From: a virus
IMG/VR virus record: IMGVR_UViG_3300014202_001065
DNA: 64,000 nt
Strand: one strand, 5' to 3'
Numbering within the stretch: position 1 is the stretch's first letter; every line of letters begins with the position of its first letter. Of the stretch, positions 2,957 to 59,889 are shown one piece after another. The position numbers and the translations under genes are program-made. The notes beneath the pieces were generated by a model that saw only the letters and a list, made by a program, of their open reading frames with translations, was not told the origin of the DNA and ran no database searches.

Positions 2957-2999
2957 AGCGTAACAGCACCGGCCAAGCAGGTCTGAGAGGCCTGTCACA
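2957..2999 (-). promoter_or_regulatory. Class II CRP-like promoter
   Basis: Box 2984-2999 (minus strand TGTGA-CAGGCC-TCTCA), 21-nt gap, then extended -10 TG-T-TACGCT (plus 2957-2965). Confidence 0.7.
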
Positions 3000-3006
3000 G
3001 ATCTGG

Positions 3007-3732
3007 CTATTTACCTATGTCGCCCAGGTCGCCGAGCTCTACGCTATCGAACTGCTGGGGGTTCTCGTCAGGTTCAACCAGCCACATACCTACGCCTGGC
3101 GCCTTCTCGACAGCAGCCATATCCCAGCCGACCCAGACGCTCGGTACGGCTGATCCGCTGGACCCGGCAGGCCCGCGCCCGATACCCTTGCCCTCCTCGT
3201 TGACCAGATGCTCACGGATGTCAGCCGCTGGACGGATCATAGACCGGTTGAAGTCTTCCAGCGTGCGGACGTAGAAGGTCTGGTCTTTGCTTGTGCTCTG
3301 GTACAGGGCCAGGCGCACGCCAAACAGTGATCCAGCACCTTTGGCGAAGCCTTTGGCTATATAACCCCCGCCCTTCTTGACATGAGAGTGGAAGCCCATG
3401 GGCCCTTCACCATTCAGGTCATCGAGCGCCCTGCCCAGGAGAGGGTACTCACCCGGCCCATTGGCCAGTGGTGCCGCTTCTCGCCGCAGGCTATGGATCA
3501 CCACGTAGCCGTCGAACCGGATCTCCACGCAGCCCACAGGCTGGTTGTCCAACAGCACCGGGGTGGCATACTCCTGGCCGCCAGCAGCCAAGGCATCCTG
3601 CATGCGCTGCAGTTGTTTGATAAGGGTGGCCAGGTCCAGGCCTATCAGCTGGCGGGATCCGGCGTCGCCACCAATGGGGTCACCTTCATTGTTCTGCTCG
3701 AGGACTTTGCGCTCATACTCTTCGCGATTCAT
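3007..3732 (-). CDS. Hypothetical protein with a DUF1653-like segment
   Basis: HVKKGGGY...LALYQS...FYVRTLEDF resembles the DUF1653 pattern. Confidence 0.65.
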   Translation of the reverse strand: MNREEYERKVLEQNNEGDPIGGDAGSRQLIGLDLATLIKQLQRMQDALAAGGQEYATPVLLDNQPVGCVEIRFDGYVVIHSLRREAAPLANGPGEYPLLGRALDDLNGEGPMGFHSHVKKGGGYIAKGFAKGAGSLFGVRLALYQSTSKDQTFYVRTLEDFNRSMIRPAADIREHLVNEEGKGIGRGPAGSSGSAVPSVWVGWDMAAVEKAPGVGMWLVEPDENPQQFDSVELGDLGDIGK

Positions 3733-3743
3733 AGGACCATCCT

Positions 3744-4187
3744 TCAGTAGGTTTTTTCAGAGGTCAGGTCGTTGACATGATCCCAGCGGGCCCGTTCCAA
3801 TACGTTCAGCTCGAAGACCGGTTTGTCCACGAGCACGGTATCGTACTTGAGCAGGGCGCCTTCGTATTCGGTCAGCAGGTGGCGGGCATGCGAGACTCGG
3901 TGCTGCAGCAGCTCGCGGTAGAACGCAACAGCCTTGTGCTCGTCAGCGAAAAGCCAGCAGCTGCCCTTGCCATGCCAGTGGTAGTCCTGCCAGCGCACTG
4001 GGGTAGTGCCTCGCTTATTGATGGCCGCCACCTGAATAAAGCCATGCTCGGTGATCTTGGTGACCATGATGGGTTTGAGCTGGACCTCAGCCAGTGGACG
4101 AGTTTGGCCAGGGTCATAGACTATGAACATGACTTTGGCCCTGTCGAATATTTCGGGGGCCGGTCTTTGGTAGTGTTCAGATATCAC
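3744..4187 (-). CDS. Hypothetical protein
   Basis: GTG start with SD AGGAGG; 147 aa. Confidence 0.7.
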   Translation of the reverse strand: MISEHYQRPAPEIFDRAKVMFIVYDPGQTRPLAEVQLKPIMVTKITEHGFIQVAAINKRGTTPVRWQDYHWHGKGSCWLFADEHKAVAFYRELLQHRVSHARHLLTEYEGALLKYDTVLVDKPVFELNVLERARWDHVNDLTSEKTY

Positions 4188-4220
4188 TGTGATTCCTCCT
4201 TGCCATCAAGGGACCCTCGC

Positions 4221-4895
4221 TCACGATTCTTGCGCGGTGAGATCTACAGGGTCGATGTTATCCACAACGAAAAACTTGTCGTGCGGCTTGTACTGGGGGT
4301 GGCGGTTGAAGAAGTTCTGCATGACGATTGCCAACTCTGCATCCAGCTGGGTGCGGTGGGAAACATCCACATGCTTCAGTTCAAGCCACTCTGCATTGTC
4401 GGCATGCTCACCAGCTTCGCTGTTGCTGGCATGCTCTCGCATTACCCCCAGGACATCCTCTGCGGTGGGGAAGAACTGGCGCTCGTGCTGGCGCACTACG
4501 GTGCCGATATAGCAGGGGCTATTGCTGTCTGGCACCTGATCGTCGTAGGCGTAGTGCCACCTGGCCGCTTCCAGTGCTTCATCCATCGTCGGGTAAATGT
4601 CGCCGAGGGTGAAAAGCTCCTCGTTGTCAGCCCAGACGAACTCCTGTAGCTCGGGTACGGCCCCCGTCTGGCCATGGCCTTCGGCCAGCCACTGGCGCTC
4701 GGTGGCAGCCAGCGTCTCAACATAGTGCGGAGCTGACGCTGGTACGACAATGCATTCTACCAGTGCCTTCTGCTGGCCATTTTTTTGCAGCTGATCGGCC
4801 AAGCCTTGAAGTATATTTTCTTGGCCGTTGGTCAGGTGTTTGCGCTTGAACACCCAGTAGCGGGGCTCCAGTTGAAAGGGTTTCTTGTCGGTCAT
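4221..4895 (-). CDS. Hypothetical protein
   Basis: 224-aa ORF with a 4-nt overlap with the upstream gene. Confidence 0.75.
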   Translation of the reverse strand: MTDKKPFQLEPRYWVFKRKHLTNGQENILQGLADQLQKNGQQKALVECIVVPASAPHYVETLAATERQWLAEGHGQTGAVPELQEFVWADNEELFTLGDIYPTMDEALEAARWHYAYDDQVPDSNSPCYIGTVVRQHERQFFPTAEDVLGVMREHASNSEAGEHADNAEWLELKHVDVSHRTQLDAELAIVMQNFFNRHPQYKPHDKFFVVDNIDPVDLTAQES

Positions 4896-5185
4896 TTGCC
4901 TGTCTCCAGTGCTTCTACTTTGTCAATCATGATGCTGATGCAGTCAATCTTGCACTCAGCATCCTCTTTGGCTTGCTGCGCCAGCCGGCGTTCATCCTGC
5001 AGCCGCGCCACCTTCAGCGCCACGGCCTCTGCTTTGGTGGAAGCCAGGCTGCGGGTGGTGTAATTAGTGCCGGTAGTTGAGGTGCTGAACGGCGGCGCCT
5101 CTATGCAGATATCAACCTCGCGCAGTTTGCCCTTGCCGTTTACGAAGTAGCGCTTCACCGGCGGGTCGTAGATAAGGTTAGTCAT
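4892..5185 (-). CDS. Hypothetical protein (first gene of the leftward operon)
   Basis: ATG 5185 (MTNLIYD) with SD AGGAG. An in-frame upstream ATG also exists at 5347. Confidence 0.65.
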   Translation of the reverse strand: MTNLIYDPPVKRYFVNGKGKLREVDICIEAPPFSTSTTGTNYTTRSLASTKAEAVALKVARLQDERRLAQQAKEDAECKIDCISIMIDKVEALETGK

Positions 5186-5213
5186 GGCGTACTCCTGTTG
5201 CTGTGAAATAAAA

Positions 5214-5343
5214 CGGGGCCAGCACCTGCGACGTGGCATCGGTTCAGGGCCCTGCATAGCCCACGCTACCTCCCTGTCACCCTTTCGACACCGCAAGCGC
5301 AGCTCCCCGAACCACCCCGGGCTGGCTTCAAGCGCCGGCCCCG
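5214..5343 (-). ncRNA. Candidate structured leader or ncRNA
   Basis: 12-bp terminal stem CGGGGCCGGCGC/GUGCUGGCCCCG, nested 9-bp stem GGUUCGGGG/CCCUGAACC and inner hairpins, followed by UUUUAUUU. G-U pairs form only on the minus strand. Confidence 0.5.
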
Positions 5344-5399
5344 ACATGGGGTGGTTGTGTTCATCCTGTCGTCCGTCCTATTGGTCGGCAGATGACGTC

Positions 5400-5469
5400 A
5401 ATGTATCTGATTACCATAGACAGATCTGAGACGCCGATCACAGAACAGCAGAACGGTTTCCACTACGCT
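5400..5469. promoter_or_regulatory. Bidirectional class II CRP-like promoter
   Basis: Box TGAGA-CGCCGA-TCACA at 5427-5442. Plus-strand -10 TACGCT at 5464-5469 and minus-strand -10 TACATT (plus 5400-5405), each 21 nt from the box. Confidence 0.75.
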
Positions 5470-5497
5470 GGCAACACCTATAAAGGAGAACCCCATT

Positions 5498-6043: not shown

Positions 6044-6114
6044 GTATTTATTGTGGTTTATACTCAGCAGGGCCCCCCCTTTTTAACATCAAGCAGCGCG
6101 AGCAGAGGTGACCC

Positions 6115-6456: not shown

Positions 6457-6473
6457 GGTTGTGGAGGTTTATC

Positions 6474-6995: not shown

Positions 6996-7000
6996 ACCAG

Positions 7001-7020: not shown

Positions 7021-7026
7021 TCTTTC

Positions 7027-7069
7027 TGGGATCTCCTTCACAGAAAATCGGGGCCGCGGCTGGTACAGT
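7027..7069 (+). promoter_or_regulatory. Class II CRP-like promoter
   Basis: TGGGA-TCTCCT-TCACA at 7027-7042, 21-nt gap, TG-G-TACAGT at 7061-7069. Confidence 0.7.
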
Positions 7070-7099: not shown

Positions 7100-8176
7100 A
7101 TGTGCATTGACAGTCAAGGGCATGTGCTGGGTAAAGGCGACGCCGTAACTCTTACAGCCGACTATATAGCCGCAAACCCTATGCTCACCAGCAGCGGTGT
7201 TCATGACCTTGTGTGGTTTGAGATCAGCGGTATAACCAACCATTCTGAGTGCGTGCTGGTTGCCGCCAGCCCTGCGTCTGCACAGGCCATGTCTTCTACA
7301 GGCTTAATCAGCATCACTGTGGACGCAAAGATGACGACGTACAGCCCAACGGGTTCTGCCTGGTTGGCTTCGACTAAAAGCCAAACTGCGAGCACCGCTC
7401 CTCAGATTTTGTCAGCCAACCAGTATCCGCTACGGAGCGGTGACATCGTACAATTAACCGGCAAATCTTTGCATAGTTGGGGGACCTACAACAATATCAA
7501 GGCCGGCGACGAGTTTGTTTGTACGCTGACAGGTTTGAATCACCCTTCTGGGTGCGAGCTTTGGCTGGATGCCATTGATGCAACTCTCGCTGCCAGCCTG
7601 AATACTAACGGGGTAGTCCCGCTTTATTGCGATGCACGCGAAGTTAATTTTGTACGAAAGGGTGCATTGTCGATGGCGCTGCAGAGAGCACAGCCTGCAC
7701 CGCCTCCGCCTCCGCCTCCGGTACCCGTACCGCCTAAAGCTGTGCTTAGCCAGCAGCCAGGCATCCTGCATCAGGATTATGCTGGTGACAACATCGTGGC
7801 CGGCGATATTGTCACATTGATACCCACCGCCTACAGCTACTTCGGGTTGCAGGCCCCGGTGCAGCCCAACTCTGAATACCGGATCAGGGCCATTGATCAG
7901 TACGGGTTGGTAGAGCTGGAGGCCGTAGACCTTGCAGTGGACGCCGAAGTTTATATACAGCTGGGGCGGCATTTAATTTTTACCCAGACTGGGGGCGTGC
8001 TATTGGCGGCCACGCAGCCTGTGCGTAGTCTGGCTACCCCGTATCAACCGGTGCTGGCCCCACCGCCGGAGCCGGAAACCGGCGAGAAGAAGACTTTTGA
8101 TCACGCCTCGCTGGGTACTGACCTGACAGGGGATGAATTGATGGAATCCATCCGCGCTATCTGCGGCGGCCGCTGA
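7100..8176 (+). CDS. Hypothetical protein with three GD-x-V-x-L repeat domains and a polyproline linker
   Basis: Repeats begin GDAVTL, GDIVQL and GDIVTL; PAPPPPPPPVPVPP linker. Confidence 0.8.
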   Translation: MCIDSQGHVLGKGDAVTLTADYIAANPMLTSSGVHDLVWFEISGITNHSECVLVAASPASAQAMSSTGLISITVDAKMTTYSPTGSAWLASTKSQTASTAPQILSANQYPLRSGDIVQLTGKSLHSWGTYNNIKAGDEFVCTLTGLNHPSGCELWLDAIDATLAASLNTNGVVPLYCDAREVNFVRKGALSMALQRAQPAPPPPPPPVPVPPKAVLSQQPGILHQDYAGDNIVAGDIVTLIPTAYSYFGLQAPVQPNSEYRIRAIDQYGLVELEAVDLAVDAEVYIQLGRHLIFTQTGGVLLAATQPVRSLATPYQPVLAPPPEPETGEKKTFDHASLGTDLTGDELMESIRAICGGR

Positions 8177-11375: not shown

Positions 11376-11418
11376 TGTGATGCACCGCACAGACTGCCGG
11401 TACCCACGGCGGTAAAGT
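11376..11418 (+). promoter_or_regulatory. Class II CRP-like promoter
   Basis: TGTGA-TGCACC-GCACA at 11376-11391, 21-nt gap, TAAAGT at 11413-11418. Confidence 0.7.
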
Positions 11419-11452: not shown

Positions 11453-11812
11453 ATGGCAGATGATCCGCTCCTGAACCTGCAAGAGCTGGTGACGCTATCC
11501 TACGACGCGCTGCCGGGTCCCTACTTTATCCATGGCAATGCGCTGATGGCCTATGACAAATTCTGCCAACCCCAGATTGTCGCCACGCTGCGCACCGATA
11601 ATGAGGTCTTGGTTGCAACCGCTATGTTTTTGTCGATGATGACGCCGGCCAGCATCCGTGATATTGCCCGGCAGGTGCTGGCCGTGAAGGAGGACACCGC
11701 CCGGCTGGATTACCTCAGCAGGCACGGCAGCTATGAGTTTCGAAACATGATGGGGGAAGGTCTGCGCACTGCGATAGACGCCGCCCGCAAAAAGATCTAC
11801 GACGACGATTAA
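11453..11812 (+). CDS. Hypothetical protein
   Basis: SD GAGG; 119 aa. Confidence 0.75.
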   Translation: MADDPLLNLQELVTLSYDALPGPYFIHGNALMAYDKFCQPQIVATLRTDNEVLVATAMFLSMMTPASIRDIARQVLAVKEDTARLDYLSRHGSYEFRNMMGEGLRTAIDAARKKIYDDD

Positions 11813-11823
11813 GGAGGCCTCCT

Positions 11824-12255
11824 ATGGCTGTTCGTAAAGGTGACTGCAAACATGCGGTAGAGCTTCTCGCCGAGTTCCTCATTGGTAGGGGCTATATCAG
11901 CAAGGACGCCATGATCAAGGCTGGAGCCGCCAAGGTCTGTGGCTATGACGAAAACCGGGACAACCTGGGCAACACCGTGCACAGCGCTCTCAACATGCTG
12001 CGTATCGAAAAGGTGGTAGTCGTTAAGCATGTGCCGGCTACATCAGGATTCCCCAGCCGCCCGCCACACTTGATCTACAAGATCAACCCCGAGCTGGAGG
12101 GTATGGTTTGCGGGCGTGCCATGCGGGAAAAGATGGCGATCCTCAACGCGACCAGTCCGCTTGATAAGGTTCGCAGTGGAGCCGAGAAGCCGAAGGTGGC
12201 CGGCAACTGGGGATCTATATTCGATGCCATGTCCAAGCAGAAACAACTGGCTTGA
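11824..12255 (+). CDS. Hypothetical protein, possible winged-helix DNA-binding protein
   Basis: SD AAGGAGG; helix-helix-helix-beta-hairpin-like pattern (inference). Confidence 0.7.
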   Translation: MAVRKGDCKHAVELLAEFLIGRGYISKDAMIKAGAAKVCGYDENRDNLGNTVHSALNMLRIEKVVVVKHVPATSGFPSRPPHLIYKINPELEGMVCGRAMREKMAILNATSPLDKVRSGAEKPKVAGNWGSIFDAMSKQKQLA

Positions 12256-12325
12256 CAGTATCATTGGGGGCCGTCCAGTAGTAACCTGTTGATCATTGCA
12301 TTGACTTAGGCCACCTGGGGGTTGT

Positions 12326-13477
12326 ATGACAGCGCAGAAAATGACTGACGATCAGTTGAAGCAGTGCATCTTGGATGGCATGACCACTGCCGCCATTGCC
12401 GGTCTTTTCAAGATGCACGAGCGGCGGGTGTGGGACAGACGAGCCATGCTGGCCAGGCAAGGTTGGTCGCCAGAGCACGGCCTGAAGGTCGAGTACCCTG
12501 ATGGGTTCAAGGTGGGGAAGACCACCATTCAGCGCGGCCCCGACGGCACCATTGAGCGCACCTGGGAACGGATGTGCGAAGACCCAGAGAAGTTGCAGGC
12601 CCTGATGCAGCGATCCATGCAAGCGATGGTAGAGGGTCTGCCTAAGTTCAAGGCCCAGCCTCTGGCCGCTCTTGAGGTGGACCACGACCTGCTGGCTGTC
12701 TACCCTCTGGGCGACCCTCACATCGGGATGATGAGTTGGGGGGCAGAAACGGGGCAGGATTGGGATCTCAAGATCGCCGAGCGCTACTTCTGCAAAGCCT
12801 TTGACCGCGTTGTCCGCACCACCCCCCACTGCAAGCAAGCCCTCATTCTGAATCTTGGCGACTTCTTCCACGCAGACAACATGGAAGGTGTCACCACCCG
12901 CAGCAAACACTCACTCGACGTTGACGGCCGCTATGCGAAGATGATCAGTGTCGGCGTCAAGATCATGCGCCAGATGATCGAGACTGCGCTAGAAGTACAC
13001 GATACCGTGCGGGTCATTAACTGCATTGGTAACCACGACGATACCGGTTCCCAGTTTCTGGCCGTGCTGCTGATGCACGTTTACGAGCTGGAGCCGCGGG
13101 TCATCATAGACGTCTCCCCCACACCGTTCCACTACATGCGTTGGGGCAAGGTCCTGCTGGGCGCCCACCATGGGCATACCTGCAAGGCACCCGGGTTGCC
13201 GGCCGTGATGGCTGCCTCTCGGCCAGAAGACTGGGGCGCCACCAATTATCGCTACTGGTACACCGGCCACATCCACCACGACACGCTGAAGGAATACCCA
13301 GGTGTGAAGGTGGAGAGCTTCCGCACCATGGCCGCAGCGGATGCTTACGCCACCTGGGGAGGCTACATTTCAGGGCAGGACATCAAGGCCATCGTCCTGC
13401 ACAAGAACAAGGGCGAGGTGGAGCGCCACACCGTCCATATCGACCACCTCCGGGATGCCAAGGGGTTGCACATATGA
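12326..13477 (+). CDS. Calcineurin-like metallophosphoesterase with an N-terminal HTH-like segment
   Basis: GDPHIG, GDFFH, GNHD, HHGH and GHIHH motifs. Confidence 0.9.
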   Translation: MTAQKMTDDQLKQCILDGMTTAAIAGLFKMHERRVWDRRAMLARQGWSPEHGLKVEYPDGFKVGKTTIQRGPDGTIERTWERMCEDPEKLQALMQRSMQAMVEGLPKFKAQPLAALEVDHDLLAVYPLGDPHIGMMSWGAETGQDWDLKIAERYFCKAFDRVVRTTPHCKQALILNLGDFFHADNMEGVTTRSKHSLDVDGRYAKMISVGVKIMRQMIETALEVHDTVRVINCIGNHDDTGSQFLAVLLMHVYELEPRVIIDVSPTPFHYMRWGKVLLGAHHGHTCKAPGLPAVMAASRPEDWGATNYRYWYTGHIHHDTLKEYPGVKVESFRTMAAADAYATWGGYISGQDIKAIVLHKNKGEVERHTVHIDHLRDAKGLHI

Positions 13478-13965
13478 AAGTCTTGATCATTGGTGAAGGC
13501 GGGCATGGCAAGGACCAGCTCGCCGATTTCCTACATGAGCTGACAGGCATGACGAAGATGAGCTCCTCCGAGATGGCCTGCGGTCTGTTCATCTTCGATA
13601 CGCTGGCCCCCAAGTATGGGTACGCCGATGCCTGGTGGTGCTATGCTGACCGGCGCAATCATCGGGAAGAATGGTACCAGCTGATCTGCGAGTACAACCG
13701 TGATGACAAGGCACGACTGGCCAAGGCATTGCTCGAGAAATACGACATCTATGTCGGTATGCGCGATGACCAAGAGTTCGCCGAGGCCAAGGGATTGTTT
13801 GACCTGATTGTGGCGGTAGATGCTGCCGAGCGTGTGCCAGAGTGTGACGACACCTTCAAGATCAGCCTGCTGGCGGCCAACATCCGGATCGACAACAATG
13901 GTGACCTGAACGATCTGTATCAGGAGGCCCGTGCGTTGGCCGATTACATCAACGACCGCCGGTGA
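13474..13965 (+). CDS. P-loop kinase (dNMP kinase-like)
   Basis: ATG 13474 in an ATGA overlap; MKVLIIGEGGHGKD Walker A; VGMRDDQEF; IDNNGDL. Confidence 0.75.
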   Translation: MKVLIIGEGGHGKDQLADFLHELTGMTKMSSSEMACGLFIFDTLAPKYGYADAWWCYADRRNHREEWYQLICEYNRDDKARLAKALLEKYDIYVGMRDDQEFAEAKGLFDLIVAVDAAERVPECDDTFKISLLAANIRIDNNGDLNDLYQEARALADYINDRR

Positions 13966-13983
13966 AATACCTGCAGTGTGATC

Positions 13984-14009
13984 GGGGCCTCAGACTGGGG
14001 CCCTTTTTT
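13984..14009 (+). terminator. Rho-independent terminator
   Basis: GGGCCTC/GGGGCCC stem followed by T6. Confidence 0.6.
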
Positions 14010-14054
14010 ATTGCATGATAGGGTCTCTCTGAAGCGAGAACACGGGGATTTATC

Positions 14055-15648: not shown

Positions 15649-15691
15649 TGTGGGGCTGATCACGGTTTTGCATGGCATCACCAGTTATGAT
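15649..15691 (+). promoter_or_regulatory. Class II CRP-like promoter
   Basis: TGTGG-GGCTGA-TCACG at 15649-15664, 21-nt gap, TATGAT at 15686-15691. Confidence 0.65.
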
Positions 15692-15719: not shown

Positions 15720-16241
15720 ATGAGTAAACGAGGCAAGGGTCAGGCAGCTCTGATGCTCAGCGAATACACCTTCAACAAGGCTGCACCCGCTGGCACCGGC
15801 GTGAATTGCCCCAGCTGCGGTAAGGGCTTCACCAAGCGTGATGCCAAGGAGGTGTTCTGCAGTAACGCCGGGGCAGGTAACTGCAAGAACCACTACTGGA
15901 CTATCATGCGCAGTTCTGCAGGTAAGGTGCTCCTGGCCACGTTGGACGCTGTGAGGCAGGCCGCCCCTGAAGTACCGGTTGCTGTGGGTATGTTCATGGC
16001 CGTGCCTGAAGTAGAGGCCTTCATGCTCAAGATCTACCACGTCCTTGGTAAAGACGATGGCATCGACGTGCACTGCCGAGTCAACGCCGATGAGATCCGC
16101 CTCTATGTCGTACTGAGTGACGAATGGGGGATCTACACCCATGAGTGCCCGGTACTGTTCGAGACGGATAGCCTGCCCGTTATCCAGGAGCTGGTAGGGG
16201 TGGTCTTCAATCAACTGCAGGTATGCCTCAATGAAAAATAG
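15720..16241 (+). CDS. Zinc-finger-containing hypothetical protein
   Basis: CPSCGKGF...FCSN...NCK. Confidence 0.75.
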   Translation: MSKRGKGQAALMLSEYTFNKAAPAGTGVNCPSCGKGFTKRDAKEVFCSNAGAGNCKNHYWTIMRSSAGKVLLATLDAVRQAAPEVPVAVGMFMAVPEVEAFMLKIYHVLGKDDGIDVHCRVNADEIRLYVVLSDEWGIYTHECPVLFETDSLPVIQELVGVVFNQLQVCLNEK

Positions 16242-16737: not shown

Positions 16738-17047
16738 GACGGTACAACGCCGCAATGCGCTGTTCCTCTGGCTGACAGCACACGCAGGGCGGCTTTACAC
16801 GATCGAGGAAATGAAGGCTGACGGTTTCGCATGGCCACTGGAGCTTGATTTCTACGACATGAGCAACAATCAGACCAGGGGCCTGCTCAATGAGCTGCAC
16901 ACCATGGGTCTGGTAAAACGCGGGCGCAGGGCCAAGACGCAAAAGCGCCCGTTCCGCCTGGTACTGGGCAACAAGGACCGGGATAGCCTCGGCACTTGTG
17001 TGAAAAAAGTTTACTGCTGGGGAGTGATGACCGATGAAACAATATAA
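16697..17047 (+). CDS. Hypothetical protein, possible winged HTH
   Basis: YTIEEM...[16 protein letters not shown] pattern. Confidence 0.6.
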
Positions 17048-18023
17048 GGATCTGATCCTGAAACTGCTGGCCAAGACCAATGTGCACCGCAAAGACCGAA
17101 CCGGTACAGGCACCGTCGGTATTTTCGGGCACCAGATGCGCTTTGACTTGCGCACAGAGTTCCCGCTGGTGTCGATCAAGAAAACTTTCACCCGTGGCAT
17201 GGTGGCCGAGTTGCTGTGGATGCTGAGTGGCTCCACCAACAACAAAGTGCTCACCGATCAAGACGTACACATCTGGGACGACTGGGCTACCGAAATGGGT
17301 AGCCTTGGCCCCATCTATGGGGCCCAGTGGCGATCCTGGTTGGTAGATTTCACTACCAATGAAACCCTGGACCAGATAGCGCTGCTGATGACGGGGTTGA
17401 AAGAGGATCCCTACAGTCGCCGGCATGTGGTTACAGCGTGGAATCCCACGGAGCTGCCTGATCCTAAACTGACGCCGCAGGAAAATGCCAAGCGCAATCT
17501 GATGGCGTTAGCCCCCTGCCACTGCCTCTTCCAGTTCTATGTGGAGGATCTGTCCATTGACGAGCGAGTGGAGTGGCTGGAGTACGAGGCCAAGATCGAT
17601 CTGCGTGATGCCATGAGACAGGCCTATGGGCCCCTCTACGATGACGACAACTTGGAGGACGTTGCCAAGGTGCTGGATATGAATGAAGTCCCAGACAAGA
17701 GCCTGTCCTGTCAGCTCTACCAGCGCAGCTGCGACACCTTCCTCGGCCTGCCTTTCAACATCGCGAGCTATGCCCTGCTGACCCACATGATCGCCCATCA
17801 ACTGAATTATGATGTAGGCGATTTTATCTGGACAGGTGGTGACACGCACCTGTACCTGAACCACCTGGATCAGGCCAGTGAAATGGTCACCAGGGAGCCG
17901 CGTGGCGGGGTTAAGTTGAAGATCAAACGCAAGCCAGATGACCTCTTCAGCTACACAGTGGACGACTTCGAATTCGAGGGGTACGACCCGCACCCTGCGA
18001 TAAAAGGGGTAGTTTCTGTTTGA
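17034..18023 (+). CDS. thyA: Thymidylate synthase with a ~50-aa internal insertion
   Basis: [17 protein letters not shown], catalytic [21 protein letters not shown] and HLYLNH. Confidence 0.97.
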
Positions 18024-19792: not shown

Positions 19793-19830
19793 AAAGAGAG
19801 GGGGGGTCGATTGCCCCTCTCTTTTTTTTT
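19793..19830 (+). terminator. Rho-independent terminator
   Basis: AAAGAGAGGGG...CCCCTCTCTTT followed by a T run. Confidence 0.8.
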
Positions 19831-19872
19831 GTGGATCAAATCACAGATCGTAGGCACCAATAAGGGTAGAGT
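19830..19872 (+). promoter_or_regulatory. Class II CRP-like promoter
   Basis: TGTGG-ATCAAA-TCACA at 19830-19845, 21-nt gap, TAGAGT at 19867-19872. Confidence 0.7.
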
Positions 19873-19898: not shown

Positions 19899-20279
19899 AT
19901 GAAAAGCCTGATCAACTTCTTGTTTTACTTTCTGCTCGCTGGGATTGCGCTCGCAAGCCTAGTCCATTGCTCTGCAGCCCAGGCCACAGAGGTGTCCCAC
20001 TGCATCAAGTTCAGCAGCCGCACCGTCTGTTTTGTGCAGGATAGCCTGGGGCGACATTCCAAGGTGGAGGTCACCAAGGCCATCAAGGGCCTCAAGGTAA
20101 TCAGGGTCACCCGCAATGGCTACACGGCCACGCAGATTGAAGCCCAGCATGGCAAGGTCAAAAACACCACAGGGTCTGACAGTTCCGGAGCCCGCTGGTC
20201 GTCTGTCACCATTGGTAAACCCGTCAACAGCATAGCCGACGAAACTACAATCGCCGGCTCATTGTCCATCAGCAATTGA
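19899..20279 (+). CDS. Exported hypothetical protein
   Basis: SD AAGGAG; signal peptide MKSLINFLFYFLLAGIALASLVHCSAAQA. Confidence 0.75.
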   Translation: MKSLINFLFYFLLAGIALASLVHCSAAQATEVSHCIKFSSRTVCFVQDSLGRHSKVEVTKAIKGLKVIRVTRNGYTATQIEAQHGKVKNTTGSDSSGARWSSVTIGKPVNSIADETTIAGSLSISN

Positions 20280-20290
20280 GAACCGATCAC

Positions 20291-20575
20291 ATGACCAATA
20301 CTGTAAAATACACTGTCATTTTCTGCGACCAGCGCAGTAAACTGGTTGAGTTTCATGGCGGTGATGGGGAAAAACCACTGCGAGCACTGTTCAGTACCGA
20401 CGAGGCCATCGAAATACCGATGCCTGATGCTTACCTTCTTCTGGACGAGTTCGGGGAAGTTACTGGGGTAGCTACCCATGACCTGATCCGCTTCTGGGGT
20501 GGGCTTGCGTCATACAAGGCTCGGCACCAGCACTACCAAGTGGTCGAGGCTTACATTATTCAAAATCCATCCTGA
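20291..20575 (+). CDS. Hypothetical protein
   Basis: ATG 20291 (MTNTVKY); operon context. Confidence 0.65.
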   Translation: MTNTVKYTVIFCDQRSKLVEFHGGDGEKPLRALFSTDEAIEIPMPDAYLLLDEFGEVTGVATHDLIRFWGGLASYKARHQHYQVVEAYIIQNPS

Positions 20576-20586
20576 CGAGGTGTTCC

Positions 20587-20868
20587 ATGGGTGTCATCAC
20601 TACGATTCTGGATTATTACCTGACTGTTGGGTTCCTGCTTTGCTTGGCCTGGTTGGGTTACGCAGTCGTGGGGCACCTGAAGACCTTTCGCAGCCTGCGC
20701 AATGTAGATTCCGTCATGGTGTGCATTACCGGCGCCGTGACGATCTTACTTTGGCTGCCGGTGCTGTGGTTCATCATGATGGATATTGTGCGCCACTACC
20801 GGAGCCTGACGCCGGGACATTGGACTTTTGATGCCGAGCTGCCCACCAAGAGCAGACAAAAGGATTGA
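20587..20868 (+). CDS. Membrane protein (2 TM)
   Basis: Two hydrophobic stretches; SD GAGG. Confidence 0.7.
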   Translation: MGVITTILDYYLTVGFLLCLAWLGYAVVGHLKTFRSLRNVDSVMVCITGAVTILLWLPVLWFIMMDIVRHYRSLTPGHWTFDAELPTKSRQKD

Positions 20869-20871
20869 CCC

Positions 20872-21501
20872 ATGGCCCTTTATATTGGCAACCCCGACGA
20901 CTTGAAGACCACCAGTGATCGCCTCTCAGAGGCGATTGCTTTTGATTTCATTCATTGGTGGAGGATCCGGGATCGGGCCGTTGCCGTGATGGCACCGAAC
21001 ATTTACTTGCAGGATTGGTTCGAGGCTGATGTCTGCAGCATAAGGCGCAGCTTGCTCATTGACGAGTTTGAGATCAAGGTTTCCCGCGCAGACTTTAAGA
21101 ACGACGCGAAGAAGACTGGAGCCGATGGCCGCACCAAGTATGATCGGATCCTAACCAACGACCACCCTCTGGCCTCGTTCTCGTACATTGCCCCCAAGGG
21201 TTTGCTGGCTCTGGATGATTTGCCTGACTTTGCAGGACTGATCGAGGTTACCCTTCCACCACCCGGCGAGCCAAAGCGTAAATTGCTGCGAGATAGGCTA
21301 CCACCCACAGGTTTCAACCCACACGATTACGGCATTGCTACCTTCCAGGTCACAGTGCGAGCCCCAAAGCTGCGCAAGGTTTGCGATGAGGTGAGCAGAT
21401 CTACCGCCCAGCGTTTACATCTGTCCATGGCCTACCGCTACTTCGACTACTACCGGACCGGCGAATGTCTGAAGAAGAAAAAGCCGAGGTACCCAGAATG
21501 A
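20872..21501 (+). CDS. MmcB-like PD-(D/E)xK nuclease-fold protein
   Basis: EADVCSI...EFEIKVSRADFKND...FSYIAP. Confidence 0.75.
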   Translation: MALYIGNPDDLKTTSDRLSEAIAFDFIHWWRIRDRAVAVMAPNIYLQDWFEADVCSIRRSLLIDEFEIKVSRADFKNDAKKTGADGRTKYDRILTNDHPLASFSYIAPKGLLALDDLPDFAGLIEVTLPPPGEPKRKLLRDRLPPTGFNPHDYGIATFQVTVRAPKLRKVCDEVSRSTAQRLHLSMAYRYFDYYRTGECLKKKKPRYPE

Positions 21502-21860
21502 GATTGCTCTGCTTTGGGGGGCGTACCTATGGCGACGAGGCTGCTATTGACGCTGTATTGCAGACACTGCGGGGGCAAATAGAGCTGCTGATCGAGGGTG
21601 ATGCTCCAGGCGCTGATCGCCTCTGCGGTAAATGGGCCGCAAAAAACGGGGTGCCTTACGTGGCCATGCCAGCGTTGTGGGATTACTGGGCCACCCAACC
21701 CGGCGGCCGGGCCCAAGCCGGTACCCGCCGCAATGGCCACATGATCGAACTGCTAAACCCTACGCATGCCGTAGGGTTCCCCGGCGGGGCAGGCAGTGCC
21801 GATATGGCGGCCAAATGTCGCTGGGACAAAATACCACTCTGGCTGCCCTACGGCCCCTGA
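21498..21860 (+). CDS. SLOG family (YspA/DUF2493-like) protein
   Basis: ATG 21498 in an ATGA overlap; LCFGGRTY, IEGDAPGAD, AGTRRN and FPGGAGSADM. Confidence 0.85.
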   Translation: MRLLCFGGRTYGDEAAIDAVLQTLRGQIELLIEGDAPGADRLCGKWAAKNGVPYVAMPALWDYWATQPGGRAQAGTRRNGHMIELLNPTHAVGFPGGAGSADMAAKCRWDKIPLWLPYGP

Positions 21861-21933
21861 CAAGATTTGAGTGCTTAGCATTACCCCAATCGGTTATGAT
21901 GTGTCCGATCCACCAACCCATAGGAGATACGCG

Positions 21934-22218
21934 ATGGACACTTTGCTGACCCTGCTGGCGGCCCTGCTTGCCCTATTCCAAGGATACGGCCCTGTCGTCA
22001 TCGGCTGGCTGTTCAATCTGGCCTACATGGTCACCGCCGTAGTAACCGTTTTCTGGATGCTGCGCTACCTTGACAAACGCTTGGGAGTAAATTTCCGTGA
22101 AAGAGTCCTGCCTATCCTCGAAAAAGAACCTATGGCACTGGCTCTGTACCGTGCTGCTTGGATCCTTGGCGCTTGTGTACTCGCAGGCCTCATGCTCGGT
22201 GCCGGTGGAGGCGCTTGA
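21934..22218 (+). CDS. Putative holin
   Basis: ATG 21934 with SD AGGAG; 2-3 TM helices; directly upstream of the endolysin. Confidence 0.75.
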   Translation: MDTLLTLLAALLALFQGYGPVVIGWLFNLAYMVTAVVTVFWMLRYLDKRLGVNFRERVLPILEKEPMALALYRAAWILGACVLAGLMLGAGGGA

Positions 22219-22723
22219 TCCCGCAACGGAAGATCGCATCAAGCGCCATTGGGGCCAGGAGCTGCCAGGGTACCCTTGGCAGCTGGGTGTAGGCCAGGCC
22301 TACCAGGAATCGCGATACCGTCTTAATGCTGTTTCACCGGCTGGGGCCCGGGGCCTTTTCCAGTTCATGGCTCCTACATGGCGAGACCTCCAGCGCCAGG
22401 GTATTGTGCCTCTGGATGCCACGCCCGAGAGTGCACGGTGGTCAGTGCTTGCTGCTGCGGTCTACATGAAGAGAATGGTTAATATCTGGAAAACACCGAG
22501 GCCCCCAAAAGACAGATACTATCTGGCTCTGGCCTCTTATAACGCCGGGGCAGGTAATATCCTGGCAGCTCAGAAACGTTGCCGCGGGTCGGTTCTTTAT
22601 CAGGAGGTCATGACCTGCCTCCCGATGATTACCGGGCGGCATGCAAGGGAGACTGAAGGCTATGCCCCTGCAATACAAGCTCATACTGATCGCTTTGTGC
22701 GCCACCGTGCTGTCAATCGGTAG
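22097..22723 (+). CDS. Endolysin, soluble lytic transglycosylase type
   Basis: YQES catalytic Glu, AVSPAGARGLFQFM, ALASYNAG and ETEGY. Confidence 0.9.
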   Translation: MKESCLSSKKNLWHWLCTVLLGSLALVYSQASCSVPVEALDPATEDRIKRHWGQELPGYPWQLGVGQAYQESRYRLNAVSPAGARGLFQFMAPTWRDLQRQGIVPLDATPESARWSVLAAAVYMKRMVNIWKTPRPPKDRYYLALASYNAGAGNILAAQKRCRGSVLYQEVMTCLPMITGRHARETEGYAPAIQAHTDRFVRHRAVNR

Positions 22724-23069
22724 CGGTTACACGGGGTTCCGCCTTGGCGTGGCCTCAGAGGTTGCCGCTCAGGCGGAGCGCGAGGCCGAAGCCAAGCGTG
22801 ACAAAGAGGCCCGCGAACAGCGGCTGAAGAACGTGGAGACCAGAGCTGCAGAGCTTCTCGGCCCGCAAAAGACCCAGCAAGAGCGGGTCGTGGTAAAGGA
22901 GGTGGTGAAGTATGCGATCAAATATCGCGATCGTCCTGTCGATTGCGCTGAGCGTGATGCTGAGCGGCTGCGCATCCTCAACGAAGCCTACGGGGTTGGT
23001 GGGGGCGCAAAGTTACCCAGCCCAGCTGATGGTTCCACCGGAGCCGCCCCTGGTGGTAAACCCGAGTAG
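22662..23069 (+). CDS. i-spanin (Rz-like)
   Basis: N-terminal TM plus coiled coil, after the endolysin. An alternative ATG lies at 22641. Confidence 0.8.
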   Translation: MPLQYKLILIALCATVLSIGSGYTGFRLGVASEVAAQAEREAEAKRDKEAREQRLKNVETRAAELLGPQKTQQERVVVKEVVKYAIKYRDRPVDCAERDAERLRILNEAYGVGGGAKLPSPADGSTGAAPGGKPE

Positions 23070-23202
23070 CCCCGGGGAAGAACTGGATGGGGAGGTGCAG
23101 CGGGCGTTCCAATCCAGCACCTGGCGGAAGCAATTGATACTCTTGCAAGAGTGGGTCGATGCCCTGTACGACAACCGGTACAAAAAAGAGCCCCCAGATT
23201 AG
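22912..23202 (+). CDS. o-spanin lipoprotein (Rz1-like)
   Basis: SD AAGGAGG; lipobox LSGC; Pro-rich; overlaps the i-spanin in another frame. Confidence 0.85.
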   Translation: MRSNIAIVLSIALSVMLSGCASSTKPTGLVGAQSYPAQLMVPPEPPLVVNPSSPGEELDGEVQRAFQSSTWRKQLILLQEWVDALYDNRYKKEPPD

Positions 23203-23774: not shown

Positions 23775-23844
23775 AGAATACCGGCAAGTGTCGGCTATGT
23801 CTGTGAACGAGATCACACACAATTACTCATCTTTGCGGTACAGT
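23775..23844. promoter_or_regulatory. Bidirectional class II CRP-like promoter (perfect core)
   Basis: TGTGA-ACGAGA-TCACA at 23802-23817. Plus-strand -10 TACAGT at 23839-23844 and minus-strand -10 TATTCT (plus 23775-23780), both 21 nt away. Confidence 0.8.
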
Positions 23845-31829: not shown

Positions 31830-32309
31830 ATGGCTCTCATCGTGCAAGTACCGCAGGGCGGCGATATCTACGTGGGCCACATCCATTTCGAGATACAGGA
31901 TGTCAGCTGCCGGGGATCTGAGTTCCGCCTTATTGACCTTAGCGACACAATAATCCCGATGTTTGTTTCGCCCTACACGCCAGCCCGCTTCCAATGCAAG
32001 GGCTACCAAGTGGCTATCATGTCAGGCCACAATGACTTCCCCCCCTCTAAGCGGGTGGCCACTCTCAGAATTTCAGCAGACAAAGCGGTCACGATCATAA
32101 GAGGTGACCTGTATCGCAAAAACGGTGCAAAGTTTGTTGTATGCTCGCCAGTGCGGGAGGCTATAGCCCAAGGCAAGATCCCCGTAAAAGACATCATCAC
32201 CTTGATAAATTTGGCCGCTACAGGCCAGCCAATGGGCGCCACCATTAGAAATGGCAACCTGCTCATCCATGTGGAGGGGCAAACTATTCTCGGGGTTGAA
32301 TTGCTCTGA
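31830..32309 (+). CDS. Hypothetical protein with CsrA-like segments
   Basis: MALIVQVPQGGDIYVG and ATLRISADKAVTIIRGDLY resemble the CsrA N- and C-halves. Confidence 0.7.
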   Translation: MALIVQVPQGGDIYVGHIHFEIQDVSCRGSEFRLIDLSDTIIPMFVSPYTPARFQCKGYQVAIMSGHNDFPPSKRVATLRISADKAVTIIRGDLYRKNGAKFVVCSPVREAIAQGKIPVKDIITLINLAATGQPMGATIRNGNLLIHVEGQTILGVELL

Positions 32310-38188: not shown

Positions 38189-38210
38189 GTGGGCCTCGTG
38201 CCCACTTTTT
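38189..38210 (+). terminator. Rho-independent terminator
   Basis: GTGGGC-CTCGT-GCCCAC followed by T5. Confidence 0.65.
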
Positions 38211-38275
38211 CTGTTGCCTTCCATAGAAAAAATCTGTGACAATAGCCACATCTTTTTGCGCCCCGGGTTTCAATC

Positions 38276-43797: not shown

Positions 43798-43828
43798 TTG
43801 TGACGTCGATCACAGAGAGTGTATGATG

Positions 43829-43852
43829 ACGGAGGCTTCGGCCTCCGTTTTT
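43829..43852 (+). terminator. Rho-independent terminator
   Basis: ACGGAGGC-TTCG-GCCTCCGT-TTTT. Confidence 0.8.
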
Positions 43853-43871
43853 ATATTCAACGAGGTGCACC

Positions 43872-54368: not shown

Positions 54369-55127
54369 ATGGCTGCATCACAAGAACCGCATCTTAACCT
54401 GTTTTATGGGTGGGCGGTGACCGACAACTACAAAACCCAGATGGATCAGAACTGGCAGATGATCGGGGCCGCAATCCAGCTGGCCGCACTGGACAACACC
54501 CTGACGGCCCCGCCGGGTTCCCCCACGGCAGGTGATCGGTACCTTGTACCGTCCGCCGGAGCCACAGGCGACTGGGCTGGCAAGGAGAACCAGATCGCAT
54601 CGTGGGATGGCGCAGCCTGGTTGTTCCTCGTACCAAGGACTGGTTGGCGCATAGATGTAGCGGGCCCCACGGTACAGTTCCTGCGGTTTACGGGTAGCGC
54701 TTGGGTCAATGTCGGGGGCGAATTGAACACTGCTTCTAACATTGGGTCTGGCGATGGGCTGTTCGAGTCAAAAGTAGGAGAAGACCTTAGATTCAAGACG
54801 CTTACAGAGGGCACAGCAGATATAACCTATGTTGTATCAGCCACAGAAATAGCCCTGCATGTGCGTGGTATAGCGGCAATGTCTGCAGGTGCTGAGCCTG
54901 GGTCTTTTGCTGTACTGGGTGATATTGTCGGAGGCATGCGCATTATAAAGTCTCTGCTGGCTGGGGCAAATGTTACGATCACCCCTGTGGGTGATTCACT
55001 AGAAATTGCGTCTTCTGGCGGTGGCGGCGTTGCTAACATAGGTGAGGTGGTTGATGCTATCCTCACAGACGGTACCAATATACTGCTCGGGGCCGACGGT
55101 TCCGTACTTTATGAGATCACGGAGTAA
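54369..55127 (+). CDS. DUF2793-domain tail fibre-associated protein
   Basis: APPGSPTAGDRYLV...GATGDWAG...IA.W...W.F..P..GW. Confidence 0.8.
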   Translation: MAASQEPHLNLFYGWAVTDNYKTQMDQNWQMIGAAIQLAALDNTLTAPPGSPTAGDRYLVPSAGATGDWAGKENQIASWDGAAWLFLVPRTGWRIDVAGPTVQFLRFTGSAWVNVGGELNTASNIGSGDGLFESKVGEDLRFKTLTEGTADITYVVSATEIALHVRGIAAMSAGAEPGSFAVLGDIVGGMRIIKSLLAGANVTITPVGDSLEIASSGGGGVANIGEVVDAILTDGTNILLGADGSVLYEITE

Positions 55128-56375: not shown

Positions 56376-56393
56376 TGCTCAAACAGGTGAAAT

Positions 56394-56421
56394 AAAAGGG
56401 TGATGCTTATCGCCCTTTTTT
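56394..56421. terminator. Terminator ending the structural module
   Basis: AAAAGGGTGAT-GCTT-ATCGCCCTTTTTT. Confidence 0.75.
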
Positions 56422-56427
56422 ATTTTG

Positions 56428-56488
56428 TGGGATCTATATCACAGCCATGAAATGACCATGTTGCCCTTATTATGACCGGGTGTATGCT
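56428..56488 (+). promoter_or_regulatory. Class I-geometry CRP-like promoter
   Basis: TGGGA-TCTATA-TCACA at 56428-56443; -35 TTGCCC at 56461, 16-nt spacer, -10 TATGCT at 56483. Confidence 0.5.
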
Positions 56489-56518
56489 ACACACCATGAC
56501 CATCAAGGAGCTCCACCC

Positions 56519-57706: not shown

Positions 57707-57717
57707 AGGGCTCTCCC

Positions 57718-58398
57718 ATGAACTACATGACGCTGGTTCCCTCTGATGGCACCTTGAATATGAAGATGCGCCTCAAGGCTGGGCATGATCTTCCCCTTGC
57801 TACGATTCAGGACAGCGGGAGCGGCACCAGTGTGCCAGTTTTCCAGCTGGGCAGCGTCCAAGTTGGGATGGTCTATGCCTATGGACCAGACCTGTTGCCT
57901 GGGGAAGAAGCCGAGGGCTTGAATAAGCTTGTAGAATCGGGGGAAATAGCCTTCCTGACATTCATGCCCGAGTCTGATTTTCTGTCCAGCGCCTACCTAC
58001 ACTTTGACGATATAGAACAGAGCATCGCCGAAGTCTGCTTCGATATGTTCAAGGCCAAGATCAGGGCCACCGTCATAGTCAGCCCCACAGGTGAGCGCTA
58101 CTACGCGACAGCCTGCGCCTTTCGCATGCCAGACTGGGCCGAGTTGCGCAGGTCGCCCAAGTCCATGACCGAGGAGCTCAAGCTCTGGACCTGGAAGTCA
58201 GTGGCCTATTACTACGGTTACATGGAGCCGCAGATCACCGGCACCCAGACTATGCGTGCACTGGAGACTGCGCATCAGTGCTTCATTGGTTGGGCAGTGA
58301 TCTACCACCTGAAGCACGGCCCGTTGACTACCATGATCCCGGCAGGTGTGAGTTTCGGGGATCTATTGCAGGGCTACACCACCAGCGCGAAGAAATAA
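57718..58398 (+). CDS. Hypothetical protein
   Basis: ATG 57718; packed directly after the ATPase. Confidence 0.75.
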   Translation: MNYMTLVPSDGTLNMKMRLKAGHDLPLATIQDSGSGTSVPVFQLGSVQVGMVYAYGPDLLPGEEAEGLNKLVESGEIAFLTFMPESDFLSSAYLHFDDIEQSIAEVCFDMFKAKIRATVIVSPTGERYYATACAFRMPDWAELRRSPKSMTEELKLWTWKSVAYYYGYMEPQITGTQTMRALETAHQCFIGWAVIYHLKHGPLTTMIPAGVSFGDLLQGYTTSAKK

Positions 58399-58428
58399 AA
58401 AAAGCCCGCAACTGTAAGGAAGCGGGCT
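58397..58428 (-). terminator. Terminator oriented for antisense (minus-strand) transcription
   Basis: Minus strand reads AGCCCGC-N12-GCGGGCT followed by a T run; the plus side has no T tract. Confidence 0.55.
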
Positions 58429-58442
58429 GAAGTGCCTGACTG

Positions 58443-58520
58443 AACAAGAGACAGTGCAACAAGACCAAACGAAAATAACACAGCCGACAAGACAAAGGCA
58501 ACAAGACAATGAGCAAGACA
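58443..58520 (+). repeat. Five CAAGA(C/G)-core direct repeats around the rep start
   Basis: Cores at 58445, 58460, 58488, 58502 and 58514. Confidence 0.65.
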
Positions 58521-59849
58521 CCGACTCAGCAGAGTAAGCTGGTCATGCCCTTCGGTTTAATGTATGGGCGTGACATTACCGACGCCCAAAAAGTCACAGC
58601 CATGTGGCTCATTTCTTATGCTACACGCAGCGCTCTCAACCTCTGCTGGGCATCCAACGAAACACTGGGCGCCGTCGCAGGTAAAAGTCCTCGCCAAATC
58701 CGCCGCGATATCCGCAATCTGATCACGCAAGGGTACTTCACAGAGGTATCAGCCCCCATTGAACGGCAAAATGACTTGAAGATGTTTCCCTCGGCACGGT
58801 ACATCCGGCCAAATAAGAAAGTATTCGAGGTGCCCCAAATGCTGAGTGACACTATGCAAAAGACAGAAGAGCTGTCCCTGAAATGTCCAGGGGGGGAGGA
58901 CATGGATGTCCATCTATATAAAAACAAGAATAACAGTAGTAAACACCTAAACACTAAAACACTAGCGTTGCCTTCGGCCGCCGGTTTTGTCAGCTATGGG
59001 CGGAAGGTGATCGGTTTTGAGATCGGGGTCACAACTGGTTTCGTGTGGGCTGATAATATCTGGTTTGAGATTGGCCGGCCGATGCCCCCCCACACGAAAG
59101 AGAATGAGATCCGGCCCGAGCCGACCGAGGCCGCGCCGCCGGCACCCGCCGCGCTCTGCGCCGCCCGGCCGACAGTAGATCTTCATCAAGTACGAATGCT
59201 GGGCCTGAGCCCACGGGTAGAAGGTATGGTGATGCGCTTCCTCGCCGCCGGGGTTGCGCCAAGAGCCATAATCGTAAAAGGTAGTGTCGTCACCGTAGTG
59301 GAGGACCCCATGACAGATAAACGCAAGATCCCGACCAACTGCTCTTTGGACGAGTTGCTCCAGCGCTCCGCCGCCGGCCAGTTGCACCGTCAGGCTCCTG
59401 CCAAAGAGACGGGCTCGGTAACCACCATGCGGATGTCCGAGGCCCTCCGGGCAGCGGCCGCACCCGTCAAGTTCATTGCCAGCCACACGATGCGGGAGCT
59501 CGGCCAGCTCAAGACGTTCGCCAAGGTGGTGCGCCAAGCAGGGGATGACCCTCTGGATGTACTCAAAGTGGTGGCCAACGACTGGGCCGGCTTTCGCAAC
59601 TACATTGCCACCCAGGGCAAGCGCCCACCAAAGGAGGTGGTGGCTGATCCTGGTGTGGTGTGTTATCTGGCCGCCGAGTGTGTAAACTATGCCAGAGCAG
59701 CGCGGGGTGCCCCTGCATATCAACAGCAAGGCCCCTCAACCGCCGCAGGTGCGATTGGGCAACCTGCATCCGCGCCAACGGGTGTGGTTAGTGACCAGGA
59801 CTTTCTGGCGCAGGTACAGGCAGCCCTCAACAAGACCAGCCAGAGTTGA
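58509..59849 (+). CDS. Replication initiator-like protein (N-terminal HTH)
   Basis: CWASNETLGAVAGKSPRQIRRDIRNL HTH; upstream of loader, helicase and primase genes. Confidence 0.7.
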   Translation: MSKTPTQQSKLVMPFGLMYGRDITDAQKVTAMWLISYATRSALNLCWASNETLGAVAGKSPRQIRRDIRNLITQGYFTEVSAPIERQNDLKMFPSARYIRPNKKVFEVPQMLSDTMQKTEELSLKCPGGEDMDVHLYKNKNNSSKHLNTKTLALPSAAGFVSYGRKVIGFEIGVTTGFVWADNIWFEIGRPMPPHTKENEIRPEPTEAAPPAPAALCAARPTVDLHQVRMLGLSPRVEGMVMRFLAAGVAPRAIIVKGSVVTVVEDPMTDKRKIPTNCSLDELLQRSAAGQLHRQAPAKETGSVTTMRMSEALRAAAAPVKFIASHTMRELGQLKTFAKVVRQAGDDPLDVLKVVANDWAGFRNYIATQGKRPPKEVVADPGVVCYLAAECVNYARAARGAPAYQQQGPSTAAGAIGQPASAPTGVVSDQDFLAQVQAALNKTSQS

Positions 59850-59889
59850 GACATCTGTCACAGCAACGGCATCAGCAAGGTGGTAGCAT
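59847..59889 (+). promoter_or_regulatory. Class II CRP-like promoter
   Basis: TGAGA-CATCTG-TCACA at 59847-59862, 21-nt gap, TG-G-TAGCAT at 59881-59889. Confidence 0.7.

Follow-up and report, generated by a model that had tools for sequence, protein, structure and literature searches.

The DNA analysed here is a stretch of 64,000 nucleotides from the IMG/VR virus record IMGVR_UViG_3300014202_001065, hereafter the window, which corresponds to the minus strand of bases 10554-74553 in a record of 82,147 bp rated 90% complete. Its recurrent feature is a promoter element in which a 16-bp dyad, TGTGA-N6-TCACA (the box), is followed after exactly 21 nt by a -10 hexamer of the form TAnnnT. The phage genome is siphovirus-like, with a G+C content of 56%, and encodes a family A DNA polymerase, a portal protein, a DnaB-type helicase and a replication initiator, together with thyA, a Dcm methylase, a RecA-like protein, an exonuclease, an endolysin and a spanin. 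Genes point leftward to the left of ~5350 and rightward in the remainder. The nearest cultured phages are Vibrio siphoviruses of the SIO-2/VHS1 type (~80 kb), at a polymerase identity of only ~42%. No tRNA genes, sought as a clue to the host, were found in the phage genome; homologues of the tail proteins yielded no host, a capsid search in Atlas returned only 'Viruses', and no sequencing run is listed as containing the window phage. The closest matches of thyA are in Marinobacter, Cellvibrio and Zhongshania, at only 45-48% identity.

A first-pass annotation of this DNA had listed eight boxes serving ten promoters, each box with 0-2 mismatches and each with TAnnnT after 21 nt, three of the promoters having a TGn extension and none a good -35 element. 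All of this is confirmed at the positions given below, the hexamer of the leftmost box lying on the minus strand at 2957-2962. This box (2984-2999, one mismatch) faces left, and the promoter it forms (2957-2999, minus strand) has TACGCT at 2962-2957 with a TGn extension and heads gene 2928-2602. At the point where the leftward and rightward gene blocks diverge sits a bidirectional box, 5427-5442 (element 5400-5469), with TACGCT at 5464-5469 on the plus strand and TACATT at 5405-5400 on the minus strand. The next four boxes read on the plus strand. Box 7027-7042 (element 7027-7069), with TACAGT at 7064-7069 and a TGn extension, heads gene 7100-8176. Box 11376-11391 (element 11376-11418; TAAAGT at 11413-11418) precedes the operon 11453-13965, which includes the exonuclease gene. 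Box 15649-15664, with two mismatches (element 15649-15691; TATGAT at 15686-15691), heads gene 15720-16241, and thyA (17034-18023) lies further downstream. Box 19830-19845 (element 19830-19872; TAGAGT at 19867-19872) stands before the operon 19899-23202 with the endolysin and spanin genes. A second bidirectional box, 23802-23817, is perfect (element 23775-23844); it heads gene 23874 on the plus strand through TACAGT at 23839-23844 and gene 23743-23216 on the minus strand through TATTCT at 23780-23775. The last box, 59847-59862 (element 59847-59889, plus strand), has TAGCAT at 59884-59889 with a TGn extension; the box opens with the stop codon of the replication-initiator gene as its first three bases, and it heads gene 59924-60466 together with the DnaB-type helicase gene.

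Outside the window, the arrangement of box, 21 nt and TAnnnT recurs on the minus strand at ~-5620 and ~-2733 (window-oriented positions), and a box at 71512 has CACTAT as its -10 at the 21-nt gap. All sites have 0-2 mismatches to the dyad and lie 25-40 nt 5' of a ribosome-binding site and start codon. An intrinsic terminator directly precedes the boxes at 7027, 11376, 19830 and 71512, as well as a further box of another geometry at 56428. The element at 13977-14019 (plus strand, two mismatches), which the first-pass annotation had put forward as a weaker case, does have CATGAT at the 21-nt gap but is a doubtful member that overlaps a terminator hairpin. We also note an arrangement at 32103-32145, a box with two mismatches and TATGCT at gap 21, inside gene 31830-32309 and ~200 nt upstream of the polymerase gene. 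It is found in the relative G001 (described below) at 54723, and could be an internal promoter or merely conserved coding sequence.

The exactness of the gap carries the argument. We profiled a composite, defined as a box with at most two mismatches, a gap and TAnnnT, over the whole 82-kb genome for gaps of 10-34 nt. The composite occurs 14 times at gap 21 and between zero and four times at every other gap, and 100 dinucleotide shuffles give 0.59 +/- 0.74 at gap 21 (maximum 4). The predicted enrichment against shuffled DNA thus holds for the composite and not for the bare 16-bp core, whose 34 matches compare with 28.8 +/- 5.8 in shuffled sequence. Extended to 20 bp, as TCTGTGA-N6-TCACAGA, the motif is enriched, with 14 matches at up to three mismatches and 3.1 +/- 1.7 in shuffles; a reversed-pattern control gives 0 strand hits, compared with 17 for the true pattern. 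A chance origin is rejected by the shuffles, the gap profile and this control. Two of the 14 composites are probably not promoters, one at ~-453 with its hexamer in a terminator loop and the intragenic one at 32103. The tally is then ~13 promoters genome-wide (with 71512, a box outside the 14, included), with at least 10 in the window. They head most of the independently transcribed non-structural operons, namely those for early ORFans, for nucleotide metabolism, for recombination and for lysis, and the helicase block. The targets named at first, accessory genes and the helicase operon, are indeed among them, but that description was too narrow, as the exonuclease, nucleotide-metabolism and lysis-cassette operons are served as well. 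For the first gene behind each box, scans against Pfam and PHROGs mostly returned nothing.

Read in the direction of transcription, the consensus is tc-TGTGA-N6-TCACA-GA, 19 N, gG-TAnnnT. The -35 position reads CAGAnn, so that a -35 element is weak or absent while the -10 is TAnnnT; G at -14 is present in 11 of 14 sites and the complete TGn in 5 of 14. The centre of the dyad lies 29.5 bp upstream of the first base of the -10, which places it at -41.5 if transcription starts at the predicted position, 7 nt after the hexamer. The gal control region of E. coli K-12 has the same gap: TCACA, exactly 21 nt, and TATGGT. This hexamer is the -10 element of galP1, the model promoter of class II, at which CRP sits at -41.5. 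The box-to--10 geometry of the phage is identical to that of galP1 and is class II spacing relative to the -10. The class II geometry of the first-pass annotation is therefore borne out, with a gap equal to that of galP1 and invariant in the phage, its relatives and unrelated phages.

The conservation within the half-sites can be compared with what is known of CRP. Among 28 half-sites, both G positions are kept in 28 of 28, the A in 25, the first T in 26 and the middle T in 19. CRP reads G5 and G7 directly and T6 indirectly at the kink, and invariant G with a weak middle T is for this reason the pattern expected of CRP. The promoter-proximal flank is G in 12 of 14 sites and A in 11 of 14. These bases fall at -33 and -32, the G and A positions of a -35 hexamer with a 17-bp spacer, and are because of this better read as a residual -35 (ttGAca) that the activator would overlap than as a feature recognized by the protein. 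The distal flank is A/T-rich in G001 and in the Vibrio phages. Hence the proximal G of the C...G flanks that had been reported is real, but the divergent factor deduced from those flanks finds no footing in them.

Several other identities for the element were considered and set aside. The gammaproteobacterial LexA box is CTGT-N8-ACAG, and the phage motif, at CTGT-N10-ACAG, fails on spacing. An alternative sigma factor is rejected by the conservation of both half-sites and by the single boxes that serve two divergent -10 elements. The Fis consensus has a 15-bp core with G/C at -7/+7 and an A/T-rich centre, whereas the box is an even dyad of 16 bp whose centre is mostly G+C-rich. NtcA-activated promoters also combine -41.5 with TAnnnT; their motif is GTA-N8-TAC and that of the phage TGTGA-N6-TCACA, so that geometry alone is in common.

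Conservation among relatives supports the element as a unit. A search with PolA alone found no close relatives; alignment of the helicase identified three syntenic ones, L011 (an NCBI metagenome-assembled genome), L012 (a Logan assembly) and G001 (IMG/VR). G001 is complete (93.9 kb, G+C content 57%), with a helicase ~62% identical to that of the window phage, and it has 19 composites at gap 21 and at most three at any other gap. Six boxes have syntenic counterparts in G001: 5427 (at 29783), 7027 (34238), 11376 (38267), 19830 (42211), 23802 (46405) and 59847 (84669), and the counterparts of the two bidirectional boxes are bidirectional too. At 59847, four related phages keep the box, the 21-nt gap and the -10 while their spacer sequences are unrelated, a clear footprint of selection on box, -10 and their distance. 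Sequencing runs that contain G001 come from freshwater and wastewater metagenomes and, in addition, from one coded organism. The rightward replication and structural genes of the window phage are 40-77% identical to those of G001; in the leftward block (~13 kb and ~30 small genes, positions 1-5350 of the window plus segment L010), only two genes match it. This block looks like a hypervariable early or accessory region.

The same design is present in phages outside this clade. An exact-pattern scan of IMG/VR (box, GA, 19 N, TAnnnT) returned many contigs with 4-6 such promoters per ~12 kb, at G+C contents of 40-63%. Three of these contigs match cultured Vibrio phages by megablast, namely members of the Nahant collection, phiHSIC, P23, pYD38-B, vB_VnaS-L3, ValSw3-3 and PS34B.2. 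Whole-genome counts at gap 21 are 8 sites in Listonella phage phiHSIC (shuffle mean 0.55), 10 in Vibrio phage 1.276.O (0.7), 7 in the uncultured G005 with 43% G+C (0.6) and 7 in the uncultured G004 with 62% G+C (0.1). Perfect boxes make up 5 of the 8 in phiHSIC and all 7 in G004. The 96-kb G006 was also considered as a box-promoter phage on the strength of two exact scan hits, but its whole-genome count of 5 against 2.3 in shuffles is not significant. A metagenomic locus that matches ValSw3-3 (V. alginolyticus) and vB_VnaS-L3 (V. natriegens) carries six such promoters, the scan having covered the locus and not those two phages.

By BLAST, no protein of the window phage was matched in phiHSIC, 1.276.O or G005. 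Weak hits came from five of its proteins (an AAA ATPase, a polymerase, an exonuclease, a RecA-like protein and one of unknown function), all of them to G004, G006 or locus L133. Recurrence of both sequence and distance in phages with nothing else in common points to a factor supplied by the host. For the Vibrio phages, the host factor plainly predicted to bind the box is CRP. Vibrio CRP binds this motif and activates from -41.5 or -61.5 (PMC6050953). In phiHSIC (L193), minus-strand boxes stand at 7165, 13124, 16988, 25483 and 28270, and 1.276.O (L194) has boxes at 29240, 31709 and 34500; in both, box promoters head small, moron-like genes on the opposite strand within the structural operon, plus early operons. 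The gene behind box 29240 of 1.276.O belongs to a five-member family annotated as DNA-binding proteins.

We consider activation by a host CRP-family protein at -41.5, with CRP as the candidate binder, to be the best explanation and a probable one. A host activator of this family is favoured because the promoters recur in unrelated phages, because none of these phages encodes a CRP-type protein that reaches the Pfam cut-off, and because half-site conservation is CRP-like. The promoters would be of the sigma-70 type with a class II, activator-dependent architecture, in which the box replaces a usable -35. The dyad would be bound by a host CRP-family dimer, most likely cyclic AMP (cAMP)-CRP in Vibrio-like Gammaproteobacteria, and the bound dimer would recruit RNA polymerase as at E. 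coli galP1. At 5427 and at 23802, where each of two divergent -10 elements lies 21 nt from the shared box, one dimer could serve both promoters. From the sequence pattern we infer the position of the start site, activation rather than repression, CRP as the binder and dependence on cAMP and the carbon state; the link to carbon state is a reasonable inference.

A phage-encoded CRP/FNR-like factor, which the first-pass annotation had left as an option, is not supported. No cyclic-nucleotide (cNMP)-binding domain was hit in the genome of the window phage, where it was sought. The HTH_Crp_2 model had no hit in the window phage and only sub-threshold hits in G001 and G005, and no CRP-type helix-turn-helix scored above the Pfam cut-off in the window phage, G001 or the unrelated box phages examined.

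Beyond the 21-nt series, a few boxes occur in other geometries. An upstream-type box at 56428-56443 (element 56428-56488, plus strand) is followed by 17 nt, the -35 TTGCCC (56461-56466), 16 nt and a TG-extended -10, TATGCT (56483-56488). The centre of this box, near -60, falls within the range of class I sites but 1-2 bp away from the optimum. The element heads the gene for the AAA ATPase, and its geometry is conserved in four phages. The box at 38235-38250, with one mismatch, is of non-class II geometry and lies upstream of the head protease gene. A stretch of ~50 nt (38200-38250) upstream of the head protease and scaffold genes ends in box 38235-38250 (TGTGACAATAGCCACA). In G001 the 16-mer of this box is identical (60803-60818) and most of the upstream flank matches, where the flanking proteins are only 40-55% identical. 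The perfect box at 43799-43814 comes just after the stop codon of a tail gene and is followed by 7 nt, TATGAT and a terminator hairpin, an arrangement (43799-43870) conserved in G001 at ~66370-66440. Neither of these two boxes, at 38235 and at 43799, is positioned for activation. Finally, the box at 63524 overlaps a conventional sigma-70-type promoter, TTGATA-N17-TATGGT (63525-63553), ahead of gene 63650; its counterpart in G001 is TTGAAA-N17-TAATGT without a full box. The genome has very few candidates for a promoter that needs no activator, and 63525-63553 is among them.

Several observations weigh against activation by host CRP. That the window phage has a host with CRP is an assumption, for which the hints are a Fis homologue and relatives in freshwater and wastewater. 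The distant Vibrio relative SIO-2 has no such site, though its host has CRP; the trait is therefore specific to certain lineages, and the host does not impose it. Broad action of CRP on phage promoters has been studied in one case, T1, and there cAMP-CRP is a repressor (PMC6737242). The window phage itself encodes a Fis-type protein, P0183 (168 aa; L010:2799-3305, plus strand), ~2.8-3.3 kb left of the window start and directly behind the box at ~-2733. Residues 15-89 of P0183 align to residues 24-97 of E. coli Fis, helices A-D (E 1.7e-10), including TRGNQTRAA, and match Pfam HTH_8. P0183 has no Fis N-terminal arms, and ~80 aa at its C terminus form an additional domain; the protein may act in host takeover or in remodelling of the nucleoid. 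An HTH_8 open reading frame is also found in G001, in the first rightward operon behind a bidirectional box. In principle, these small Fis-type proteins could bind the dyad, and a very fast-evolving activator common to the phage lineages would escape BLAST.

These proteins are the natural candidates, along with an ORFan, for a dimeric activator made by the phage, which would bind the box and drive middle-type promoters like those of Mu Mor/C. Precedents for such binding exist: Fis can activate from ~-41, NifA and other HTH_8 proteins of its type recognize TGT-N10-ACA, and the dyads bound by Mu Mor and C overlap the -35. We nevertheless regard this explanation as unlikely. BLAST does not align P0183 with the HTH_8 protein of G001, and the two differ in architecture, although both phages have an identical box. 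HTH_8 is absent from phiHSIC, 1.276.O, G004, G005 and G006, all of which except G006 have the same promoters, and in the cultured Vibrio phages BLAST finds no match to any protein of the window phage. The leftward early block differs almost wholly between the window phage and G001. The early promoters found, that before P0183 among them, all belong to the box type, so that a phage activator would have no obvious start-up, and for a Fis-type activator in particular the box does not fit the 15-bp consensus.

A different host protein with CRP-like specificity, such as Vfr, Clp or a cAMP-independent CRP/FNR paralogue, would leave the geometry intact and replace carbon state with another signal. 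The genome with its 56% G+C, the relatives in freshwater and wastewater, the weak thyA matches to Marinobacter and Cellvibrio (45-48%) and the variable third position (TGnGA), which resembles the Vfr consensus, are in keeping with such a protein. It is a variant of the explanation by a host CRP-family activator more than an alternative to it, and for the Vibrio phages canonical cAMP-CRP is the obvious binder; we give this variant a slim chance. Slimmer still is the prospect that the boxes are sites at which CRP or another host factor represses or buffers, with promoters that fire alone as extended -10 elements while the factor dampens or times them. The T1 case speaks for this, since there cAMP-CRP represses the pir, dam and recE promoters (PMC6737242), as do the common G at -14 with its minority of complete TGn motifs and the boxes at 43799 and 63524, which overlap the -35/spacer regions of sigma-70-like promoters. 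But a repressor tolerates a range of positions, and an exact 21-nt gap is what face-of-helix activation contacts require. Most sites have neither TGn nor a -35 and would be very weak unaided, and the symmetric sharing of a box by two divergent -10 elements fits recruitment.

With activation by a host CRP-family protein as the preferred reading, the promoters can be set beside known systems. They resemble E. coli class II CRP promoters of the galP1 and melR type in the dyad that overlaps the -35, the poor -35, the TAnnnT and the frequent TG extension. They differ from these in that the architecture serves a whole set of operons in the phages, with several bidirectional boxes, and in being predicted here from sequence. 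Most host sites also depart further from consensus than the phage boxes do: the V. cholerae chromatin immunoprecipitation list (PMC6050953) contains few perfect boxes, in contrast to their share in phiHSIC. Marine cyanomyoviruses have predicted NtcA boxes, 1-16 per genome (PMC3037559), and offer a parallel in which multiple sites for a host global regulator of the CRP family would drive the expression of phage genes and link infection to the nutrient status of the host, both cases being predictions; the motif there is GTA-N8-TAC, the host phylum is another and the signal is 2-oxoglutarate. In T1, likewise, a siphovirus has several promoters under the influence of host CRP, which links the phage programme to sugar uptake, although the effect there is repression, shown experimentally, and no uniform class II geometry is described (PMC6737242).

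The promoters of Mu Mor/C and P2 Ogr are similar in that an upstream or -35-overlapping dyad replaces the -35 and sigma-70 recognizes the -10. There, a phage protein binds the sites, whose centres lie at -43.5 or ~-55. The phages in which the box recurs, by contrast, have no protein common to all of them, according to BLAST and to the checks for HTH_8 and a CRP-type helix-turn-helix. Literature searches, whose coverage did not include the original phiHSIC genome paper, turned up no account of a class of phage promoters with class II CRP architecture.

On balance, we lean slightly towards the view that several unrelated siphovirus lineages independently arrived at near-consensus class II CRP promoters for their stand-alone promoter sets. 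Those in question are the 38-48-kb Vibrio phages of the phiHSIC/Nahant type, the 82-94-kb freshwater/wastewater clade and at least one phage with 62% G+C. If this is true, gene expression in these phages would be hard-wired to the cAMP-CRP state of the host, a general and so far unrecognized strategy by which phages of aquatic Gammaproteobacteria would sense nutrients.

A phage promoter is commonly taken to be either a strong, constitutive sigma-70 site or a site for a factor that the phage makes itself. In the window phage, which looks lytic, the main class of promoters appears not to function unless a global regulator of the host is present. For annotators, this provides a simple and specific promoter model for these phages, which consists of the box, 21 nt and TAnnnT. 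The idea is directly testable in cultured pairs that have the architecture, phiHSIC with Listonella pelagia and 1.276.O with V. cyclitrophicus. An environment-dependent 'pseudolysogeny' has reportedly been seen in phiHSIC, and CRP-wired promoters might underlie it. If CRP is the activator, the success of infection would track host cAMP, and hence sugar supply and starvation, which would bear on phage-host dynamics in nutrient-poor waters, on pseudolysogeny and on the use of phages against Vibrio in aquaculture.

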